Shown one piece after another: positions 9,081 to 28,052 of a stretch of 64,000 bases of DNA. This DNA comes from Minutocellus sp. GHC0000111. Taxonomy: Eukaryota. The position numbers were made by a program, and so were the translations under genes. Within the stretch, counting starts at the first letter, position 1. Each line of letters opens with the position of its first letter. Location: positions 1,860,001 through 1,924,000 of the forward strand of contig OZ361257.1 of the NCBI GenBank assembly GCA_977018835.1. Direction: 5' to 3'. Below the pieces are notes generated by a model that was not told the origin of the DNA, ran no database searches, and saw only the letters and a program-made list of their open reading frames with translations.

Positions 9081-11094
9081 ATGTCCCACTACTCGGACCA
9101 CAACAAGCGCAAGCGCTTGTCGGCTGCTGTCCCCGATGGATCCGAAGCAGCACTTGGCGGTGGTGGGGGCGGTGCATCGCCTCGCTCAACCGACGATCAG
9201 TTCGACGACTACTACCGCAGCCCCGCCAGCGCCATATCCCAAAGCACAGGCGGCGGAGACCGAGGTGGAGGTCGCTTTTCCGACGCGGCTTCCTACCATT
9301 CGCATCACTCCCAGCGGTCCTTTGCATCGCATGGCTCCCACCACTCCCACCCGCACTCACACCGACCAGCCGGCAGGGGGGCAGCACGCCCCGCACAACT
9401 ACCGTGGCTTTTCGGGCGGTCCGGACGTCGGAGATGGCAATTCCACCATTGCCACGATAAACTCGGCCGACTTGGTCAGTCTGAAGCGGGATCGGGAGCG
9501 GGAGGGTCGATGTTCGGAATGCGGTGCGCAGACGCACGAATTGAGGGTCGATCCAAGGACGGGAGCACGGACCAAGGAAGCGCTCAATGTCGAGGGCGAG
9601 GTTCGGAGGGGCAGGTACGTGAAGTTCGTGGCCTATTTATGCACATGTGCTTGCATGTATGTCATGAATACGAAAGAATCGAGTGCCCATGCATTTGCAA
9701 TGCGTTTTGAATGCAAGCATGACGCCTCCTTGCTATTGGAACCTTTGATAAGCAACATTTTTCTTCCATATCTTATTGTCCAACCTTGGCTCTCTTCCCC
9801 CAAAATTATTTCCCCACCTCCCCCCCATCCACATAGATGTCTCTACTGCTACCCTCTACCGACGAGACGCAGTCAGGCAGACAATTCCCAGGCTATTTTT
9901 GGTGGGGTGTCACAGTCGCACAGGTCGATACATAGTCACCATCTCATCCCCGATGCCGCCGTCTCGCATACTTCGTTCAATTCGGCACCCGTGGCGTCTC
10001 ATAGATCTGGCGGCGGTGGTGGTGGTGGACAGTACGTTTCGTCTTCTCGCTCTGTATCGTCGGATCATCAGCAGCATCTCACTCAGCAGCAGCATTACGC
10101 CATGAACTATCACCAAAACAGTGCCAGTGGGAGCATGGCCAGCTTGGGAAGTCTGGGTGATATGTCGCCGAGGCATCATCCCACCCACGGACGGCATCGT
10201 TTGTCGGACTTGCCCGATACCATTGAATCGGCATCGGTGGCCTCGAACCCGTCCATTGCCTCGACGACCAGTGCCGCTCAACTGGCGGCCGACCAGGTGG
10301 CCATTGAGGATGCCATCGCTCGCTTCGAGACGGAAAATGCCGATCTGTGCGACATTTTGGCGACCATGCGGCGGTTCCCCCGGTCGGTGCGGGTGCACGA
10401 GCTGGGGTGCGAGAAGCTTTGGATCCAATCTTGGGACGATGAGAACTCCAGTGCCATTGGTAGGGTGGGAGGTATCCCCACCATCATTGACAGTATGCGA
10501 ACGCACGCCGGTAGTGCTCATTTGCAGCAGTGCGGTTGTGAGGCATTGCAGAATTTGGCATTGAATGATTATAACCGCGAGGTCATTGCCGAACAGGGTG
10601 GTATCATTGCTGTTATAGATGCCATGGGCCGCCATTGGGATGTCGCCGGCGTACAGCAGTGTGAGTCTACCGCTTTTATTCTGCGGAGCCTTTGTTTTTA
10701 GCAGAGGAAATGTTGATGTCTTGGGGGTTTGGCATTACGAACAGATACGGATTCTTTTTACCAGTATAGATTGTCTCACCCTCGCTCTATTTATCGGCAT
10801 ATCTTGCACTCTTTTCTCACAGGCGGATGCACGGCACTTGCAAACATTGCCGGTGGAGAGGCCGGCGGAGACAACCGCGTTGCCGTGGCCGATTGCGGTG
10901 GTTTGCATGCAATCCTCAAGGCGGTACAGACATTTCCTCAGGACGAAACGGTCCTTCGAAGCGCTTATCAGGCTCTGCGATCCCTGGGGTACAATCCAAC
11001 ACAAGAGCTTGAGCGAGCGCAACAATTACAGGAAGAAGAGCAGTCCGCAGACGACGACGACGACGAAATGGGTGAAGGTGGCGGGGGAGACTGA
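9081..11094 (+). CDS. Armadillo-repeat protein with N-terminal CxxC...CxxC motif; introns 9615-9836 and 10661-10822; frameshift at G-run ~9376-9381
   Basis: GRCSECGAQTH...RGR|CLYC. ARM-like repeats: GGIPTIIDSM...GCEALQNLA and GGIIAVIDAM...C|GCTALANIA. The GT-AG junctions restore the frame. Confidence 0.8.
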
Positions 11095-11397
11095 GTTTGA
11101 TTGGACTTGGGAAGGAGAGGACTTGTTGGCTGTGCATATTTTCTTTTGTTTTCATGTCGTGTACTAAGTAATTCGGTCTACCAAGGTAGACTCCATTGGT
11201 TGTAAATTTGAACAATAAATATCGCAAAGTCTGTCTCATTCTATTCAGCAAATAGAACACCATCACTGTTAATTCTCTAAAAAACTTGAGAAAGACCAAG
11301 AGGCACCATAACGACCCTCAAGATTTGGATTCGAATGGGAGCAAATACATACATGGAGTCAGACCACACGAATCGAGCCTGTTCCCTCAATGAAATG

Positions 11398-12097
11398 GGT
11401 AGCGCTACCTTAGGTATCACCCACTGAAGGTATACAAAGCTTGGACGAAGGACTCCTCTAATCCTTGGGTCCCTAGGGGGGCTATCATCACTCCCGGGGG
11501 TCAACGACGCCAAAATCTGGGATTCTGGACGAGCTGTTGATATTAAAATCTCGATCTCATGAGTACAAACTCAAACATAGTAGCATAGCGCTACCTTAGG
11601 TATCACCCAAACAAGGTATCTAAGGCTTGGGCGTAGGTTTCCTTTGCTACTTGGCCTCCAACGGTGACTGTGGTCGCTCCCAGGGGTCGATGGTGGGCAT
11701 TTTTGAGATTCTGGGCGGGCTGTGGATATATAAATCTTGACTTTACAAGTACAAACTCAAATATAGTAGCACAGCGCTACCTTAGGCATCACCCACACAA
11801 GGTATCTAAGGCTTGGGCGTAGGTTTCCTTTGCTGCTTGGGTTCTAACAGTGACCTGTTATGTCTCCCGCGGGGGGTGACGACGCCAAAATCTGGGATGA
11901 TTCTGGGGGGAATGGTAGCGCATAGATCTTGCCCTTTCGCGTACAAACTCAAACACAGAATCATAGCGCTACCTTAGGTATCACCCAGAGAAAGTATCTA
12001 AGGCTTGGGCGTAGGTTTTCTCTGCTACAAGGGTCCCAACGGTGACTGTTATGACGCCCGGGCCCGACGACAAAAAATCTCCCACGGCGCATCGAAG
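11398..12097. repeat. Tandem array of ~3.7 units, period 186/186/192 bp, each with a TACCTTAGGTA palindrome
   Basis: AGCGCTACCTTAGG recurs at 11401, 11587, 11773 and 11965; GTACAAACTCAAA and GATTCTGG also recur with the same period. Confidence 0.9.
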
Positions 12098-12274
12098 TGC
12101 TAAGAGGTCCTAAAGCTAAGCTAGATAGATGTAGCTAGTAGAGGTTAACAGGACCTACGTAGATGAAAAATGGGCCATCGGAGATGTCGTTGGCCCATGG
12201 ATCAACGGTCAGGAGAGGGCACTGAGTCAGTGGTCTGATCACCGTACGTACGTACGTATCCCACGGTGTCAACA
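12098..12274 (-). repeat. 3' LTR (177 bp)
   Basis: Identical to 18114-18309 except for a shorter GTAC microsatellite and G at 12268 versus A at 18303. Confidence 0.95.
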
Positions 12275-12322
12275 CACCCTCGCAGATCAATGACTAGTGC
12301 CATTGAATCTACATGTAGAGTC

Positions 12323-15300
12323 CTAATTGGAATCTACATGTAAGTAGACTGGTCGCATGTCGACATGGTAGCGGGCGGGATGGTGCTTTGTAAAATAATC
12401 GGCCAAATTTTGCGCTCCTTTCCGCCAGCACACCTGGAGTTGTCGTCGTTGCTCTGTGCGATCTTGGACCCAGTAGAATCTCATGTCCATAGCCTTAGAC
12501 CGTCTTTGCTTGACGGTTTTATTGGCGATTCCAGATGTTGTAGAGTTGTCAACGACGATAGCAGTAGGGGGCTGCGGGTGACCCATTTCTTCTAGTGCTG
12601 CCCGGATTGGTGCTGCATCTTTCATGTTGAAAAATAGTCCTCCCAATTCGGCTTCAGCGGCTGAGGACATTGCATGCTTGATGACATTGGCATTGACGAG
12701 GATGGCTCCATTCATTGGTGGCATGGGATCACTTGAGTCAGGCTGGCGGTGCGGGTCCTTAGGTCGGGAGCTTAGGTAGAAGCACCCTCCGAGCTTGCTT
12801 CTTGATTTCGGGGCTGACAAGCAGGAGGCGTCGCCATGCACATGCAGGATCATGTCTGACTTGACGCATCGAATGACTGCGTCGGGATGGGTTGCAAGGT
12901 AATCTAGAAGCTTCTTGGCATCTTGTCGAGTGCGCTCGGTAGCTTTGGATTGTTCCGCTGAGATGCCATTGAGCGCCGGTAAAATTGTTGAATCAATTGC
13001 TCGACCACAGTGCAAGGAGCTGCCCACCACCTGTTGAATTTCGTTGATGCCTTTGGCGTCGAGTGGTGGTGAGTCGTCTTCCGGTTCTGGCAGCTGGGGT
13101 CCCGGGCCATACGTCGGACGACTCCATCGACATGGCGCATGCTCGGGCCGTGAGGGGCGGTCGTGTTGGAACTTGTGGCGCATCTCCTTGACGTAGTTAG
13201 GCATGGATAGATCCACCCATTTGGCCTCGTTGTTCCACTCGAGTTGAATGCCACAATAAAGTCGGCCTTCCCAATCGGCAGTAATCTTATGCTTGGAGTT
13301 GAGGGCCTGAATGAGATGGTCTGTATGCTCTTTCCCGACATGCTTTACTCCAAAATCGTCAACGGTTAGGCAAAAGGTAATTGGGCGGGTTTTGTGCCTC
13401 CAAAGGCCGGCAGCACGCTTGCAAGGGAAATAGCCATGGGGTTTGAGATGCTTGACAAGTTGATCGTAGGCTAGGCGCCCTGCCTGGGGTAATCCATACA
13501 TTCCGCCATCGATTCTGACCAACACTCGACCACCATTATTTACTTTGTCGTGGAGGTCGTAGGCTTCCATGACTTCGTCGGGGATGAGAGCTACTGGCGC
13601 CCACATCCATTCTGGCTCTGGCATGGTGCTATTGAGATAGAAGTCACTGATATCAATTCCCATGAAACGAGCGTTGTCTGTAGAGATGACGCTGTTGAAA
13701 AGTAACTTTGCAGTCAACATTTCAGCGGTCGGGGTCGAGACTGTACCAGGGTAATGAATTTTGTCGCCTCCTGCAGTCCATCGAACTCGATTGGGATTTG
13801 GTTTATGGGAGCGATAGTCGGCGACAATGCGGAGGTATGTGGCTTTTTCCCCCGAGGCAGTTCGGACCAGTGGACGAAAGCCATTGTATTGGAGGGAATG
13901 CTAGCACTGTTTCCAACTCGGCCGTCCGTTAGCCGTCCAATTTCATCGATGTTTGCTTGAATGAATTGGTCCCTCATGTTCGTTTTGAGGAGGTCGCGGT
14001 GTTCAAGCATTGCACCAGTATCGGGATGGACGACGGCGTTAGCAAAGTGTTGGAGGTTTGGTAAAGGCGAGAAAGCTGCCATGTTGGCCACGTGGTGGGT
14101 GCTACGACGAGATGATGGCCGTGGGGGAGGGTTCCGATGTGGAATGCACCCTCGCTGACGGTGTGATCGTCGTCGAGGTGGTTTGGCGGTCGATGGTTTG
14201 GACTTGCTTGTCGATTTTGCTGGAGCTGGTAATGTTGGAGTGGTATCGATCGTTGGAGACTTGCGTTTACGTTGCCGACGGGAGGTGGGGGCATTGGAAC
14301 TTTGATTGGATGTTACGACGGTTGCATCGTCGTCATGATTATCATCATCGTCGCCGTTGGGCTCGTCTACTACAGCCAAAGGATTGTAGTAGTTGGAAGA
14401 AACTGACGAGCGAGGTGGCGCGTTGGATCGACGTGATCGACGGCTTTTAGTGGTGGCTGCATCACATGTGGAGGATTTTGCCACCCTCGGAGGTTGCTGG
14501 GGCTGAGGTAACGGAGCGTTGGGGTTGGAGACAAGGTGACGGCCTACTTCAGTCTCGTTCATCTCTTCTACGTCGTCGTCCTCGTATTTGATTTTGTAGT
14601 ACTTATACTTCTTGTCAAATGCAACGACTCTACCCTTGTAATTGCGATCTCCAAACACTTTGGCGACGATGGTACCGAGGCGGAATCGTTGGGAGTCGTC
14701 ATCGTTCTCCAGCACCCTCGGAGCTGCGGTTGTCTGCATCGTCTCATCAGAGGCGGAGGTGGCAGATTCTGCTGGGGTCACGCTGTTGAAAATCTCGGAG
14801 AGCTTTTCTAAAGCTTGACGATGCTCGTCTCGAAGGGGAGCAAGGGGTGCCGCTGGATGTGGATTCTGTAGAGCGTGCAGGAGTTCATGAGCTGCGACTA
14901 TTGCTGCATCGGCCGACGACGTTTTGGGTACCGGAATCATTTTGGGGAGCCAGACGAGTGTGTTACCAGTGCGTTCCGCCCGAGTTTCCTCAATCCAAAC
15001 CTTGTAACACCGGTAGTGTTCCATGGCTGGACCGACATAGTACCCATCAACGCCATGCGGGGACCAAGAGCCGCGTGCCGAGGGCATCTCGTGAAAGATG
15101 ACCTTGCATCCGAGGGGGCCGAGAGGCGTGCGATTGAAATCAAAGCCGCCATTGAGTTGCTCGTACGCTGATAGTCGAGGGTTGACTCGGGATGCTCTCA
15201 GGAAATTGAGGGTCATTACCGCCTGCTCCAGCAATTTATCCCACAAGATGAGGGGAAAGTCGGGATCGGTACCACAGAGAATCGCAATGAAATGATTCTT

Positions 15301-16509
15301 AAAGGTTCGAATGGCTCGTTCGGCCGCATTTCGGCGGTGGGAGTGCGTTGGGGTCAATTGAAAATCTACATCCTTTTCTTCCATGGACTCCTTCAGCTCT
15401 CGACTCACTTCATTATCCAATCGTTGCAATTTTGGGCGAAATCCTCGCTTGGAGAGGTGTTCGAAAATAGTTTGGTGCGCTCGGCGCATTTCCGTTCCCG
15501 ATCGGCTTTTCATTGGTTCGGCCAAGATGCTGTTGGAGTCATAGTCATAGACGACCATTATGTACTGGTGGCCAGAAATAGACGATGCCAAGAAACGGCC
15601 GGGCTGATCTGAGAAGATCTGGCCCGTTATGTCATGACAATCAGCAAAGACATAGTTGGTGCGCTGTTGGTGTTGTGCCGGGTGGAGATCCTGCTCGGTT
15701 TCGTCCACCCCAGGGAGAGATTTTGGCGTAGCCATCGACCGTTTGGGCTTGGTCGACCTGATGTTCTTGCGCTGCTGGTCTAAGTGACCTTTAATCATCG
15801 GTATCGACTGTGGCATGTGCTTACGTACAAGCTTTGATGTGAGGCCTGGCCAAGATCTATAATATCTCGCATCGATTGCTTTGCACCAGGCAGACAGCTG
15901 AGGACTGCCAGCACACCAATGTAAAAAGGCTACACGTTCCGGAACCGTCTCCTGGGCAATTGCGGCGTTGGCAGCATATTGGATGACGTTGGGGCCGGGG
16001 AGCGGCGACATGGTGGGCGAGCAATTTAGATCTACCATCCACAATTTCGTTGAGGGGTCTCGTTTACCTTGCAAAATGACGGCATTGTCCTTGGCGATGA
16101 CTACCGAATCCTTATCGAAAGTGGCAACACATCCATCGTCACACAGCTGCCCAATCGATAGGAGCGATGATGCCATATTATTGAAAATATAGGCCTTGCT
16201 AGCCGATGGGGAAACCCCAGGGAGGCGAAGCGTGGCCTCGTGGGTGTTCGTCATTGTGCTATTGTCCGGAAGGGTGACGCTGATAGGAATTGCTGTCTGT
16301 TGGACGTTGAAAATAGGGCCATCGTGCGACAGGCATTGGGGCTTCTGGACAAAATGTCCCGTCGTTCCAGTATCTGCTGCGAGGACGATTGGCTCTTGAG
16401 TTGGAGGTTTGCTTTTTGACGTAAGAAAAGCTAACGAAGGCGGGGAGGAGGTGGATTCAGACACACTGTCCTCTATTTTATGCTGATTAACATCCACCGT
16501 CCCTCCCGC
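12323..16509 (-). pseudogene. pol: Copia pol: aspartic protease, integrase, Tudor-like insert, reverse transcriptase, RNase H; frameshift ~13845 and many missense changes
   Basis: AADTGTTGHF (PR); SDQPGRF, RLDNE and RRNAAERAIRTFKNHF (IN); GMYGLPQAG and VDDFGVK (RT); SAAEAELG, DNST and NLADYFTKHH (RH). Confidence 0.95.
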
Positions 16510-17806
16510 TCAGTTACGACGCGAGCTACCACCGCAAGGATTGTACTTGGTGGCGTTGTCAACGTGGTTGGGCCCTTTGCAAGTGCATTCAAAGCTGGGG
16601 TGGTTGGACGAATAGCCGCACGTGTGGCAATAATGGCCTCTGGGGAGGATCGACTGCAGTTCCCGCTTCTCCTGGCGGTTGAGGTTAGGACCTTGGCCTG
16701 GGAAGTGGCCGGCGCCGTTCTGCTGGCCACCGCCGCGGCAGGTAGCCTCCACTGCCACCAGTGTGGTTGCGTCCCTCACGCAGAACGCGGTTCTCGGCCT
16801 TGAGTGAAGCTATTTCTTGGCGAAGTTTGGCAATGGTGTCATCCTTCTCGTTGCTTTTTTTTGCGAGGTTCGCCATCATGGCTTGGTTGGTCTTGAGGGC
16901 TTCTTCGGTGGTGTCAGCCAAAAGGAGATCGGCTCGAGAAAGAAATGGATCGTCCGAGGCCGATGAGGCCAAATTCGCGCCATGACATCCTGCCGCTTCG
17001 GTGGTGGTATTGGCCATCTTCTTATCACACCAATCGCGGAAGTCCGACTGCATGTTGGCCCACGTGCGTTCGGCCTCCGGTCTGTCGTCCCAGTCCTCGC
17101 ATGCCTTCTTTGCCAATCAATGAGAACCTGCACACGGAGCGGTAGAACTTGGAGACCTTTCGCTTGTTGGTGAAGGGTTCGCCGGCCGTTTCAAACGCCT
17201 TGAAGACTTTGTTGAATGTGGCGATGTGGGTGTCGATGGGTCCCCCGTCGCACTGCTTCTCGAGCTGCTTCTCTAATTCCTCCTTCTGAGTCTCGTTGAA
17301 TTTCAAGTAGCGATCGGCAATGCTGTCGATGATTTGGCGGATGGTGACTGGCTGGAAACCGAGCATGTCATCTTCGAGATGATTGATGTAGACGGCGTCG
17401 ATCGAGTCGAGGAGGAGATTCTTGAGCGCCGTGTTGACTTGCTCGTACAAGTTGCAGTGGCCCTTTTCGACGCAACATCCCCGGATTGCACGACGATCGC
17501 GTTGGTCTAGATTGGCCACGGCGGGAATGGTGGGGCTGGGGCCAGGATTTGCCGGAGGCGCATGTGGTCGGCCGTTACTTTTGGTGGTGTGTTCGGCATC
17601 GCTGACGACGAGGCCCAAATGGCCGAGGTCATGGTCATTGCACCCTCTGCTGGAATGCTGGCCGCCGCTTGTTGAAGCTCCTTGAGCGCTTTGGCAACAC
17701 GCTCGCGTTGGGGAGGTTGTCCTGGGTCATTCATACGTGTGATTAACTTGGTGGGGAGAATCGGCGCTGCGCCGAGAGGTTGGCCAAAAACTGCGTCGGG
17801 ATTCAT
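16510..17806 (-). pseudogene. gag: Copia gag with C-terminal Cys/His knuckle; at least 3 frameshifts (~17640, ~17120, ~16740)
   Basis: AASIP...GHLGLVV, PANPG, ALKNLLLDSID, RTWANMQSDF and YCHTCGY...HPSFEC...H...AT..N..GGS are spread over four ORFs. Confidence 0.85.
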
Positions 17807-18113
17807 GCTGGTGTTTCAGTCAGCGAAGACAGAGGCAGCACGGCGGTGTTGCTGCGAGACGTGTGTGATCGACAGAAGGTTCGATCCAGAGAAGTGTGAT
17901 CGATTGGATGGGTCGACCTGGTGAGGACTTTCGGGGAAGGGATTGGATCGTCGTTCCAATGTTGTCGAAAGAAACGGTCGTTTTGGCCGATTGAAGATGT
18001 GTCGGTTTTTCTTGCGTGAGACGAGTGAGAACCCAAGGACACAAAAACCGGTGAGAGGTAGGTGCGAACCGAAATGGGGCGAGCACGGGTGGAAAAGATG
18101 TATCACGTAGGTC

Positions 18114-18309
18114 TGCTAAGAGGTCCTAAAGCTAAGCTAGATAGATGTAGCTAGTAGAGGTTAACAGGACCTACGTAGATGAAAAATGGGCCATCGGAGA
18201 TGTCGTTGGCCCATGGATCAACGGTCAGGAGAGGGCACTGAGTCAGTGGTCTGATCACCGTACGTACCGTACGTATGTATACGTACGTACGTATCCCACG
18301 GTATCAACA
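18114..18309 (-). repeat. 5' LTR (196 bp)
   Basis: Direct repeat of 12098-12274 with TG/CA termini; contains the ATGGGCCA...TGGCCCAT and AGGTCCT...AGGACCT inverted repeats. Confidence 0.95.
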
Positions 18310-18484
18310 CGAAACACTCGCCTTAAATTTAGAAGCACTAAACTCAAATTCAGGCACTAAAAAGCAAGAGGTTGTGAGGACCCCTATTTCAGAAATAGGA
18401 GTTTTTGTCGAATTTTGGTCCCGCTTTTCTTGTTTGCCAGAGATGCTTCGCACGCTTGCGTCGCTTGCTTGAAAAGCACATCAT

Positions 18485-21511: not shown

Positions 21512-23063
21512 GATGCCAGATATCTCAACAAAAGCAAGCGGTTGGAGGCCAGCGGCAGCAACGGTATCAGCCCACAATGCTAATGGTGACCTTGTGGCCT
21601 TGCATCTTGCATTGAATTCTTCATGCACTCCCGAAAAGCCAAAATCTCTGCCCAACGTCCGTCAAAATCCGTCGACGGGCGGACCAAATTTGCGGCCACA
21701 GAACCCAAACGAGCTCAGTTCCTTTGATCGATGGAGGTGGTGGATGGCATAGGAGAGCGCCCCGCTGCCGACCGCCTCTGCGCGGTATGCGCGGCCGAGG
21801 GCACGTCGTCACTTTTTTGCACGATAAGTTTTCTTGGGAAATTCCCCGGATGTAAGGACTGAGAGAGTCGGCTCGAAAGAGTTTTACCGGCGCGGACGCC
21901 GCTTCCCTTTTCATTGTGCGAAGACGGTCTTTCCGGAGACAAGAGCATTTCTCATGGGATAGTTCGGCTCCGTCAACCAGCCGCCATCTGCGTGTTTTCG
22001 AATGCGCATATTGAGCAAAGTTATGCCATTTAGAACTCAACGGGGGTCACTTACCGCCTCTCGGTCGAAGGAACTCACCCCACGTGATATCGGAGCGGTC
22101 TCCGATTGCAGGCTTTCAATTACCTGCAGGGGCTTGATCAAAGGCCCAGTGGTTCGACTCCACCTTGCCATAACTTGTAGCGGTCGTTTCGGAAAAATAG
22201 ACTTGTAGATTTATGCAGCAGCATGAAATGCCGGCCATCTGGGTGTGGCAACTACCGGCAATGGGTCTGCACCGGTACCATGCTATGACATAGCATTCTC
22301 TTCTCACAACGCCCTCTTTGCTTGTATTACTAAATTTATTTTGATTAGATTCATTAGCTACGTAGCTAGATCTAGCTAGCTAGTGCTGTCCAGCTCCGAG
22401 CTCTCATCATCGCCGAGCAGGTGGGCTGCTTGGATTGATTCATTGAAATCAATAAAAATAAGTGAAGCGGCTTCCAGGACATACAAAACCAATACCGACA
22501 AATACAGAAGAGCCAGCCTCGAAAATCTTTTCCCAGCCCCTTCAACCCAACAACGCCGGCAGTTGAAAGATCCAGACGATCCATTCCTTCCCAGCAAACC
22601 TGAAGGAACCACTGGGTGCACCGCCGAAGCACCAACATTTTGCTCACCTCTCTAAAAGTTGACAAGATGCGCTGTGCCAATTTCCTGACTTGCGCTTTCC
22701 CCTACAAATGTTGACAACAAATCTCGACGATGAGAGAGTTGGCGACCGATCGAGGGCGTCTTTCAGCGCTTCGTGCAGCGCACTTTCCGCCATCTTTTCC
22801 ATCCGACCTCGATGTGATGCGTTGAGAACCATCACTCTGCCAACAAGCCTCCATCACTTTTCGAACAAGGTATAAGTTATCAAAGCTCATCGAATGTAAA
22901 ACAATGTAAGTCAAATTGATAGTACTGATTGAATAGCCAGCTTGCTTACGCCTTCAGCACAAAAGTTGCATGTTGAAAAGATATCAATTGATAGACCGAA
23001 TAAAATCTGTTCATATCTCAACGAAATGTTTTTCCCCTTCACTTTGATAATATTGCAGCCAAT

Positions 23064-23672
23064 ATGAAGATCGCAAACACTGCCCTTCTTCTCGCCGCCA
23101 CTATCGGCGCTGCTTCTGCCAAGGGCAGTCCTCTTCGTCGTGCTCGCAATCTTCAGAATGACGACATCGAAGCTGACAGACGAAACTCGGCCGGCCAGCC
23201 CTTTGATGGCGATCTTGGCACTGTCACTCCCGTGGCCGGGGATTGTGTCTACGATTTCGATGACGAAGACATGTTTGAGGTTCTCACGGGTAGCCCTGCG
23301 GCCATGACTTGCGTTGGCACTCGTTGTAACCCCGAGCTTCAGCATTACAATGTTGTCGGCGTCAAATTCGAGGAGCTCAAAAAAGACAAAATCCTCGCCG
23401 CATACTTCAACGTACACTGCCCCAGCATGGAGGTCGGATTCGGTCTTTCCTGCCCCCCCGGCTTCAACGTCGCGGCACTCTATTCACTGTCCTTCAATGA
23501 GCCTGTCAGTCTAGTAGGTGACTGCTCCAACGTCCCCATCGACTCAACCCAGTATCTTTCATCTGGAAATTATTGCATCTTCAATCAGTTTTCGATTGAC
23601 GATACGCAGACCAAGTTCAAGTACTTGTGCGTGGCGACGGATTACAATCTCTACGACATCAACTGGGATTAA
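23064..23672 (+). CDS. Secreted Cys-rich protein, paralog A; probable 5'-UTR intron 22906-23058
   Basis: Signal peptide, LRRARNLQ propeptide motif; clearly homologous to 25546-26157. Confidence 0.85.
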   Translation: MKIANTALLLAATIGAASAKGSPLRRARNLQNDDIEADRRNSAGQPFDGDLGTVTPVAGDCVYDFDDEDMFEVLTGSPAAMTCVGTRCNPELQHYNVVGVKFEELKKDKILAAYFNVHCPSMEVGFGLSCPPGFNVAALYSLSFNEPVSLVGDCSNVPIDSTQYLSSGNYCIFNQFSIDDTQTKFKYLCVATDYNLYDINWD

Positions 23673-25545
23673 CTGACGGTCAAATGCATTCAACAATGCA
23701 GCGGATTGATGGGTCGTAGCAGGAAACATTGATTTTGAATCCTGCTGTAAAGCGACAATGCTTCCATCTCATCTCTATATCTCTATAAAATTTATACATT
23801 ACATCTATACACACGATGATATAGTCCATCAATTCATGTGCTCGCATCATACTTGCTATCTACCCCTTCGTTGGCAACCAGTAATGCCATGGCGCATCGT
23901 GCTTTGCCGTCAGCAACATTTATTTTACCTCGTGAAAGATCTGCCATGCCATCTTCTTATATTTTTTTACATTTTCTACTTCCATTGGCAGTTTTCGTTC
24001 ATGAACCAATCTCTATCCAATTCCATAGCATGACAGCAGCCTTCATCCCATGGTCCTTGATTCTTTGTGCACTTCTCACACCATCTGCAGTTGCAAACGA
24101 TGCACATAAGGCTGCACAAGGATCATGCCATTTTGGAGCATCACCAACAATACCCAGTCCTCTCTTCATCATTGCGATACGCGATGATGCAGTCCTTGCA
24201 TGTAAGGGTTGTTCGCTTATCGCACGAATCATCATCCTTAATTTCCCTCATGCTAACCTTCGAGCATTTGACTCCTGGCTGATATACCTGAGTTTCTCCA
24301 TCGGGCAGCTCTTCCACCTGCGCGCCTCGCTGGTTCAGATATTTTCTGTACTCACGCACGGCGATCGCACAGGTCTTCTCGTCCAACACAGCAAGCTCGA
24401 AACAAAGCGCTTTGTCCGGTTCTACATGTAGCGCAGTGTCGACATTACGGATGCGACCCTCGATGATACTTGCGATTCGCTTCGTATATGAAGCGGGCAT
24501 ACGACGTAGGTGACCGTAATTGAACTGCCGCATGCGTTCGTCGCGGTGACAGGTTCAAGTCAGAGAGGTTCTCTTCCGTGAAATTGCCATCTTCGCCTTC
24601 TCGGTCTTCTCCCTCACCAAATTCTGATTCATGCTACGCCTGCTTGGCGCGACGGGGGTTCGCCTCCACCTCGCCGGTTGGATGCTTGTAGGTGATCTCT
24701 CCTCATCCATAATACGTAGTAATAGGCAGTGATACTGCCGATTTCTTGCCATTTGAGTGACCGTGGCGCCTCCGGCCAGTCATGCAGTCACCTCTTGCCC
24801 CAGTTCTGGATTGATTTTTGTTCGGTAACTCTATTGGAAACTCGGGTTGTGATTTAAGACAAATAACCACCAAGTGTCAAGACTTTTCAGGACACCCAAA
24901 ACAAATCTTTACAAATCGAGGAGAGGAAGCCACCTTGACCACCTGTCGACAAGACGGTCCTTTCACGCCGAAATACCGGCAGTTGGAGAAATTCAGACGA
25001 TCCATTCGCTCCCAACAGCGTCATTTCAGCCACGGGGTGCACCGCTGAAGCTTCAACGCATCCAAGTTTTCGCCCAACTTTCCGAAATTTGACGAGATGC
25101 GCTGTGCCAAAGCTGGATCTGCGCACACTCTCACAAGACGGATCGTCGCGTCTTTGACAGCAAATACTGGAGGATGAGAAAGTTGGCGACGGATCGAGGG
25201 CGTCTTTGCTTGCTTCGTGCAGCGCACCCATCGCCGTCTTTTCCATCACATCGCAAAATTATGCGTTGAGGATCGGCACTTCTAGACGAATCAACCCCTC
25301 ACTTTTCAAACAAACAAAAACTTATCAAAGCTCATCAAACCAGGAAGGTACATGTAAGTCGGAAAAAGAAACGAAAGCGCAGTGTTGCATTGATTTATCA
25401 GCAATAAAATATGTTCACCCCTTAACTTTATCGTACGATTTGAATATCAACGATCGATGTTATGTTTGCATTCTCACTCACGTAATAATTCCCTACATCT
25501 GTATATATACCATATATCCAGTTCCACCTAAAAATTACAGCCAAT

Positions 25546-26157
25546 ATGAAGATTACCAACTCTGCCCTCCTCTTCGTCGCCGCTATCGGCGCAGTCTCTG
25601 CCAAGGACACTCCTCTTCGTCGTGCTCGCAACCTCCAGGACACTACTATCAACCCTGTCGATGCTATTGAAGCTGATGGTCGTGGCAGCAAGAGCGGTGA
25701 GCCCTTCGACGGAGATCTCGGCAGCATCACCCACCTGAAGGGAGACTGCTTCTATGATTTCCCCGACGAGGACAACTTCGAGGTTCTGTCTGGAAGTCCC
25801 GACGCAATGACTTGCATTGGCGAGCGATGCAACCTCTCTCTCGAGCACAATCGCGTTGTTGGTTTAAACCTCGAGGAAATCAAGGAGGACGAGAAACTTG
25901 TAGGCTTCTTCAACTTGAACTGTCCTGATACATTCAAGGCCTCCTTCGGTCTTAGCTGTCCGATTGGGTACAATGTCGAGAAGATCTTTGCCCTTACTAC
26001 TGCCGAAAAGCTCGTCGTTGACTGTGAGCTTGGCGGCAACGGAAGATACTGCATAGTGAAGGAATTCGACTACAAGTTTGGTTTCCTGAATGGAGTCAAG
26101 ATGCCCTTTGAAGAGTTTGGCTCCTTGTACAAATACTTCTGCAAGAAAATTTATTAG
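25546..26157 (+). CDS. Secreted Cys-rich protein, paralog B; probable 5'-UTR intron 25354-25540
   Basis: Shares PLRRARNLQ, PFDGDLG, GDCxYDF, FEVLxGSPxAMTC and FGLSCP with paralog A. Confidence 0.85.
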   Translation: MKITNSALLFVAAIGAVSAKDTPLRRARNLQDTTINPVDAIEADGRGSKSGEPFDGDLGSITHLKGDCFYDFPDEDNFEVLSGSPDAMTCIGERCNLSLEHNRVVGLNLEEIKEDEKLVGFFNLNCPDTFKASFGLSCPIGYNVEKIFALTTAEKLVVDCELGGNGRYCIVKEFDYKFGFLNGVKMPFEEFGSLYKYFCKKIY

Positions 26158-26822
26158 GCGTCCAACTGTACCATTAGCCAGCAGATGCTATGAACGAAGC
26201 AGCGAGTATTCAAGTCGTCTCAGAGTTAGTTATCTCATGACATCTTTTTGTAAAACTCACTAGCTAGCGCCATACATATTCATACACATTCTGCATGCAT
26301 GTATCGAGTAGATTTACGTGCACTATTTTTCTGCAAGTGTTACTATATTGAATTATATAAGCGGCCACATATGCGTGATTGCCTTTGGCAAACATGGTTG
26401 TGGTCTCTCTCTATATACTACTACTACTATCTACTGCAAGCTACGTAGTATACTGTAACGTGCAGGTTCTCAATATCGACTTTATGGAACGCTTGGAAGC
26501 AAATGCTGTTTGTTATCTGACTTCCCTTCTTTGACTCGCTGCTGCAATGGCAGCGGGAGATCTCGTCCGTGCTGCAGCGATAAGCGGTTAGCGGTAAGCC
26601 GTAAGCATTCCGTATGTTAGACAGGCTATCTACTGTCCCACGAGCAGCGAATTGATGCGTCATAGCAGGACACATTGATTTTGAATCCTGTTGTAAAACG
26701 ACAATGCTTCCATCTCATCTCTATAAATACATCTACATGTATATTGCACCTAGTAGGAATCCTATATACACACTATCAACTATTGATATAGTCGATCAAT
26801 CTACATTCTCGCACCATCCATG

Positions 26823-27703: not shown

Positions 27704-28052
27704 GCAAGGCGAGTCAGAGTGGAGTAGAGTGAGGATGTGTAGTCAATTCGTGCAAGTATCTGGTTTGTCCTTCATGGGCGGGGGTGGATGGGCATAAAAA
27801 TGAGTGATACCGAAATGTGGTACTACTGCAGTACCACTCGGCACTTCCAAATCGAAGCCGACCGATCTCCATGACTACTGCCTCACGCACTCTTCCGCGA
27901 AGAAGTCGATGGAAAAGGGGCCTCGGGGATTTTGAGCTTGCTTGCGTGGCCAAGAGACCTTGAAAGAGCGTGTTTGCTGTTTTGGGAACAATTCCCGAAT
28001 CGGTCGAGCTGCTGCTCTGTGCTGGAGTCGTTGTTTTTTCCGAAGGACAGAG

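Follow-up and report, generated by a model that had tools for sequence, protein, structure and literature searches.

A copia element and its insertion site

The window analysed here is a 64,000-nucleotide stretch of the diatom Minutocellus sp. GHC0000111 (contig OZ361257.1, positions 1,860,001 to 1,924,000), and its minus strand carries a copia retrotransposon in which TpA dinucleotides have been changed to TpG or CpA (Table 1). The traits of a Ty1/copia element are present, namely an RVT_2 reverse transcriptase, long terminal repeats (LTRs) of the form TG...CA, a 5-bp target-site duplication with one base unlike and relatives in diatoms. The LTRs are separated by a single substitution, TG at 12268 for TA at 18303, which is a TA/TG difference as the original prediction for this DNA had stated, and by a 19-nt difference in the length of a microsatellite. 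In addition, an empty-site contig from read run X2 joins 12097 directly to 18315. The near-identity of the LTRs and the empty site show that the insertion is young. The two target-site copies differ at their last base; the empty-site contig has the left form, and run X1 confirms the right flank. The frame upstream of the reverse transcriptase, which we label protease/integrase-like by its motifs, had no Pfam match for either, and it is out of frame with the reverse transcriptase at approximately 13843.

Table 1. Features of the copia element in window coordinates, with changes at TA steps.
Feature	Position	Strand	Remarks
Left target-site copy, CGAAG	12093..12097	plus	right copy CGAAA at 18310-18314
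Copia element	12098-18309	minus	LTRs and RVT_2 reverse transcriptase
3' LTR, 177 nt, TG...CA	12098..12274	minus	TG at 12268 private; TA changes at 12131 and 12149 common to both LTRs
Reverse transcriptase-RNase H frame	12323..13900	minus	Pfam RVT_2; 16/54 testable TA steps changed
Densest stretch of changes	12612..13414	minus	14 amino-acid changes with at least 2 siblings keeping the TA residue
Protease/integrase-like frame with Tudor domain (PF21743)	13714..16509	minus	9/71 testable TA steps changed
Gag-position region, four overlapping frames	16435..17815	minus	label by position; no diagnostic Pfam match
5' LTR, 196 nt	18114..18309	minus	TG at 18147, CA at 18165
Nine tandem duplications of 2-4 nt	13529, 16737/16740, 16900, 17114, 17490, 17645, 17831, 17861, 18018		window copy compared with read contigs

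Element copies change specifically at TpA

We compared the window copy with 55 proteins from close copies of the element, hereafter siblings, which are 91-97% identical and were obtained by protein searches (all 14 members of the cluster for the reverse transcriptase frame; 41 of the 56 for the frame upstream of it). Most lie on ENA contigs of 0.2-5.3 Mb that probably belong to the same assembly as the window. The siblings are fragments with shared descent, including pieces of one copy and haplotypes, and are hence non-independent; p-values derived from them are therefore overstated, and our tests count sites first. Columns near frameshift tails were masked, and site counts exclude sites at which all siblings differ from the window copy. 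A distant outgroup comprised 119 reverse transcriptase relatives, and read contigs came from four runs (X1, X2, X7 and X10). The RNA contigs of X7 and X10 carry changed bases, which we did not take as a sign of transcription.

In the window copy, 25 of 125 testable TA steps now read TG or CA. Among the siblings, non-synonymous A>G or T>C changes affect 60 of the 133 TpA sites but only 31 of the 881 other A/T sites (approximately 13-fold by site), and the corresponding observations, 172 of 1522 at TpA and 45 of 11361 elsewhere, differ approximately 28-fold. At 43 Tyr columns, the siblings encode Tyr 305 times, His 78 times, Cys 119 times and another residue 44 times, and Arg is absent, whereas a crude estimate predicts approximately 76 Arg if the two bases changed independently. 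The lack of Arg from double changes indicates that a TA step ceases to be a target once it has been hit, which is what a process specific to TpA demands. The read contigs are consistent with this result: among the 40 best-supported of 163 variant rows in the element, 21 of 28 transitions were linked to TpA, compared with 21% expected, and the X1 contigs differ from the element by 112 transitions and 7 transversions. CpG decay is faint in this family (15/3040 vs 10/6457 observations).

The direction of change is given by near-intact siblings and by the outgroup. The burden per copy ranges from 0 to 57%, with siblings at 0/31 and 2/51 at one end and 30/54 and 12/21 at the other, and shows over-dispersion among the copies (chi2 122, df 36). 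At 21 Tyr columns of the reverse transcriptase-RNase H frame that are kept by the 119 distant relatives, the window copy has His or Cys in 5, and the relatives have these residues at a mean of 0.9%. Taken together, these results support the view that element copies are subject to a TpA-specific A:T>G:C process that acts on both strands and converts TA to TG or CA.

The original prediction rested on codons said to have lost Tyr, Val, Thr or Ser at TA steps, and none of the three outcomes that it had named as fatal to it was observed. The quoted codons read as described, and 11 of 13 quoted motifs are supported. Siblings keep Tyr, Thr, Ser or Val in GVK-H, K-H-KIT-A, HAP-C, L-HC, IR-C, H-G-DAS-C, KH-A, RA-H..E-H and S-A-W; V-C-W is backed by one sibling with Tyr and LE-H-RDL by reads with A at 14001. 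The reading of WT-A-GG as a change lacks support, as both siblings that cover it also have Ala, as do 17 of the 119 distant relatives. A base-calling error had also been considered, but Illumina run X7 contains the bases of the window copy at 16468, 16482 and 16491, where X10 contains TA. A depletion of TpA had been offered as a further check, and bulk composition gives no signal: the element and the remainder of the window have the same observed/expected ratio, 0.58. Across 80 related loci (43-56% identity, no close copy among them), the median ratio is 0.60 (range 0.42-0.85), and hit and unhit loci were not separable by this measure.

Sampled host DNA is spared

We examined the 20-kb host flank for the same bias. 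Among the 40 best-supported of 376 variant rows, which were selected with stricter thresholds than those of the element, 7 of 27 transitions were linked to TpA, compared with approximately 20% expected and with 21/28 in the element (p=4e-4). Transitions and transversions in the flank number 126 and 89 in X1, under the same stricter thresholds, compared with 112 and 7 in the element. A host gene shows no His or Cys at 12 conserved Tyr columns, a result that is non-significant alone (p=0.13). These findings support the conclusion that the TpA bias is confined to the element and that sampled host DNA is spared.

Four head-to-tail units of approximately 186 bp, which are 60-81% alike and rich in TpA, occupy 11362-12097, and the final unit borders directly on the copia element. 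This tandem array keeps its TpA (observed/expected 0.89 over 11001-12000), and its transitions are without TpA enrichment (10/45 vs 29/119), although the array is a weak control with units only 60-81% alike; in one unit pair, 5 of 7 transitions are at TpA. A host duplication (22632-23779 and 25062-26725, 78-93% identity) has an ordinary substitution spectrum and is too diverged for a strong control.

We also evaluated five other copia clusters (P0180, P0200, P0248, P0232 and P0201), for which the members used were 15/40, 15/89, 15/28, 13/13 and 4/4. These clusters, on large contigs apparently from other assemblies, show CpG decay (Arg>Cys/His) and no TpA signal: Arg shares 56-78% of the Cys columns, and Cys occurs at 2 of 84 Tyr columns.

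The preferred target is 5'-TAY-3' on either strand

When sites are oriented by the adenine, changes affect 48 of the 70 TAY sites, compared with 12 of the 63 TAR sites. The preference holds on each strand (sense, 32/47 for TAY vs 7/27 for TAR; antisense, 16/23 vs 5/36) and persists when Tyr codons are removed (24/36 vs 9/45, p=3e-5), and 21 of 23 events scored at the DNA level are at TAY. Split by both neighbours of the TA step, the changed share is 244/506 (48%) for RTAY, 67/568 (12%) for YTAY, 40/406 (10%) for RTAR and 0/200 for YTAR; in these shares, sites changed in the window copy were counted only with sibling support, which introduces a mild bias. Adenine after C is barely changed (12/298 sites), and adenine after G is changed at 7/330 sites.

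Both strands are hit, as had been claimed, and to an equal extent, with rates of 21.6% and 17.4%, and 76 of 169 events are sense at RTAY sites that can be read both ways. We looked for strand coordination between neighbouring events and found none, since 142 of 291 pairs are same-strand compared with 149 expected. An ApT context, as for N6-methyladenine (6mA), was rejected because changes are no less frequent at TAC than at TAT (19.6% vs 17.9%). A survey of 6mA reports, in its available text, no enrichment on transposons and only 5-methylcytosine in Phaeodactylum (bioRxiv 10.1101/2024.10.28.620566).

Part of the load appears to be inherited

We investigated when the changes arose relative to insertion. 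At 18147 and 18165, most read depth in X1 has TA (at 18165, only a quarter in X2), and both window LTRs have TG and CA, respectively; these two changes therefore predate the LTR duplication. With two TA changes common to both LTRs and only one separating them, much of the load looks inherited, which agrees with the earlier suspicion that a parent copy had supplied part of it. Of the changed states of the window copy, sibling P0127 shares 8/10 and sibling P0129 shares 9/11; most simply, copies that were already damaged would have given rise to further copies. Change has also recurred, as two adjacent Tyr codons show 7 of the 9 possible Tyr/His/Cys pairs among 15 sequences.

The patchiness that had been described stands in part. 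Changes are dense at 12.5-13.5 kb (16/44 vs 9/81 elsewhere, p=0.002) and absent from the window copy at 14.5-15.0 kb (0/13), where siblings show 14/88. High density in gag is only partly borne out, because an RNA contig differs from the window copy by 16 letters over 16130-16811 and by only 4 over 17400-17851. This patchiness may reflect mosaicism from damaged parents.

Short tandem duplications accompany the changes

Compared with read contigs, the window copy contains short tandem duplications (Table 1), and of the 12 indel rows listed (56 in total), 10 represent additional letters in the window copy. One duplication is a TA-bearing 4-mer, the first copy of which reads CA, and duplications of 2 and 4 nt lie at frame changes of the gag region near 17645, 17114 and 16737. 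In pairwise alignments over approximately 13,600 residues, 4 single-residue insertions were found in siblings, and the only deletion is the gap opposite the window copy's own duplication; three of the 4 insertions are at or beside TpA hot sites, although the numbers are small. In the control clusters, events over approximately 17,000 residues comprise 1 insertion and 4 deletions. These duplications may be by-products of lesion repair.

Relation to known mutators

Repeat-induced point mutation (RIP), which operates in Neurospora and other fungi, introduces dinucleotide-specific transitions on both strands and inactivates transposons, but it makes TpA from CpA and TpG; it involves homology sensing, premeiotic timing and dependence on RID. 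The changes in the copia element resemble RIP as both-strand dinucleotide transitions in transposons, whereas the polarity established by outgroup and siblings, TA to TG or CA, is opposite, as the original prediction had recognized. APOBEC3 editing of LTR retroelements and ADAR hyper-editing are one-stranded and clustered. The copia family likewise displays deamination-type transitions with heavily and lightly hit copies, but its hits are strand-symmetric and unclustered and prefer a 3' pyrimidine.

The mechanism had been thought to be undescribed; however, a preprint on the rhizarian Bigelowiella natans (Mettrop et al., bioRxiv 10.64898/2026.01.13.699255) reports the same spectrum. According to its available sections, integrated NCLDV (nucleocytoplasmic large DNA virus) and virophage DNA undergoes only TpA>TpG/CpA changes on both strands; these arise de novo on integrated, silent, single-copy DNA at approximately 1000 times background, an ADAT2-like deaminase is proposed but unproven, and transposable elements are named as potential targets. 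Both cases involve a TpA-only process, both strands, foreign-derived DNA and uneven activity. They differ in that the present host is a diatom and the changes strike a multi-copy family of LTR retrotransposons, and in that the 3' pyrimidine preference, the 2-4 nt duplications and inheritance through transposition appear only here when compared with the preprint's main text. De novo change was observed in B. natans; the window element shows one LTR-LTR difference (at TpA) and two shared LTR changes. Literature searches for a diatom or retrotransposon case of TpA hypermutation returned none, and the only printed case found was this preprint. We conclude that the feature is real and strong and that it works like the B. 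natans process and not like RIP.

Candidate mechanisms

We propose, with a probability of roughly 0.5, that a candidate TadA/ADAT-like adenine deaminase acting on silenced chromosomal copies explains the change of TA to TG or CA, mainly at 5'-TAY-3'. In this model, the host enzyme would deaminate the TAY adenine to inosine, which would be read as G at the next replication, and hits would be scattered, without processivity. The element would lose conserved Tyr, Val, Thr and Ile codons, such that copies would die with their frames still open. Damaged copies could still be mobilised in trans, so that a young insertion would begin with an inherited load and then add to it. TadA-derived ABE7.10, an adenine base editor, favours 5'-YAY according to the accessible part of one report (PMC10188366). 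It shares with the copia changes A>G conversion in DNA and a pyrimidine context, but it is engineered, and here the 5' base is strictly T; its preference would thus fit a TadA-family enzyme loosely.

Several points weigh against a deaminase of this kind. Change after insertion is indicated by a single LTR difference, and the LTRs have two changes in common. The base editor favours YAY (PMC10188366, in part), whereas CA is barely hit here. The siblings are non-independent, which overstates p-values; the host flank was sampled with stricter thresholds than the element; and the host Tyr control is non-significant by itself. Finally, sequence alone cannot distinguish a modified A from a modified T; the adenine deamination of the original prediction fits the TAY motif, and a lesion on the thymine side would look the same.

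Such a thymine lesion is an unlikely but serious alternative. Oxidised thymine mispairs with G, and a silencing mark, 5-hydroxymethyluracil (5hmU) or a further oxidised form, placed at 5'-RTA-3' in transposons would yield T>C on either strand. As RTA is the complement of TAY, the spectrum would be identical, and the weakness of CpG decay in this family, compared with its dominance in the five other-assembly copia clusters, would agree with a mark of another kind. Dinoflagellate repeats are enriched in 5hmU, which is reported to replace T preferentially in TA and TC (PMC11572971). However, TC is spared here, as its complement, A after G, varies at only 7/330 sites, and that report makes no mention of diatoms.

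Editing during retrotransposition, which we consider rather improbable, would have one deaminase act on packaged RNA (sense A>G) and on minus cDNA (sense T>C), such that copies are born mutated in the manner of APOBEC3 editing. The presence of two of the three LTR changes in both LTRs, the over-dispersed burden and the lack of enrichment in the adjoining array, which never retrotransposed, are all consistent with this scenario. The two substrates would nevertheless have to give the same motif at nearly equal rates without strand-coordinated runs, the changes shared with P0127 and P0129 are explained by descent, and the B. natans case, as far as the preprint's available sections go, has no reverse-transcription step (bioRxiv 10.64898/2026.01.13.699255).

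A true RIP analogue, in which pairing of homologous repeats triggers a TpA mutator, is slightly less probable still, even though the target family is multi-copy, changes fall on both strands and the host DNA sampled is spared. The two LTRs, although nearly identical, differ at just one site, the spectra of the tandem array and of the 78-93% identical host duplications are ordinary (both too diverged for strong controls), and the B. natans target is single-copy. The description of the process as repeat-directed gains no support from these comparisons, the array being a weak control. That the element is dead and simply decaying, that the residues belong to the family as a whole or that the assembly is at fault can be dismissed as very improbable, because despite a bulk TpA content equal to that of host DNA and four listed changes that are private to the window copy and away from TpA, the excess at TpA is approximately 13-fold by site and 28-fold by observation, near-intact siblings exist, distant relatives keep Tyr, and X7 carries the window bases where X10 has TA.

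The findings extend the process to diatom retrotransposons, with a patchy distribution among copia families: it is absent in five other-assembly clusters and hinted at in 3 of 119 relatives. The family appears to have been caught part-way, with loads from 0 to 57%, and the four-base motif shares offer a quantitative profile for screening candidate enzymes. The process would also bias transposon dating and the evolution of GC content in such genomes. A broader reading, which we put forward tentatively, is that diatoms possess a natural defence based on editing of adenine in DNA, which bears a 5'-TAY signature, is shared with Rhizaria and outweighs CpG decay as a transposon killer in some lineages, that the 2-4 nt duplications are its repair scars, and that edited copies are mobilised so that the load ratchets. 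If true, the system would be old, spanning the stramenopiles, alveolates and Rhizaria (SAR), and would provide adenine base editors of natural origin.

Distant relatives and other observations

Three of the 119 distant reverse transcriptase relatives have at least 2 His or Cys residues at conserved Tyr columns. These sequences, P0098, P0026 and P0084, lie on ENA contigs, have approximately 50% identity and show 5, 4 and 2 such residues, respectively, at the 21 columns. Their organisms may be subject to the same process, which hints at a wider but patchy spread.

Downstream of the integrase-like region, at 14540-14675 on the minus strand, the element encodes a Tudor domain of the PTM/DIR17-like type (PF21743, E 8e-12), which is possibly a chromatin-targeting module. 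The LTRs contain a TACG microsatellite of unequal length (12252-12263 and 18262-18294), which is rich in RTAY and yet unchanged in the window copy. A neighbouring gene encodes a glutathione transferase whose cluster is mainly Bacillariophyta, and its organism-named matches are diatoms, centric and pennate, at 65-70% identity. At 27917-27927, runs X1 and X2 carry an allele with 394 extra letters, an insertion polymorphism that is absent from the window.

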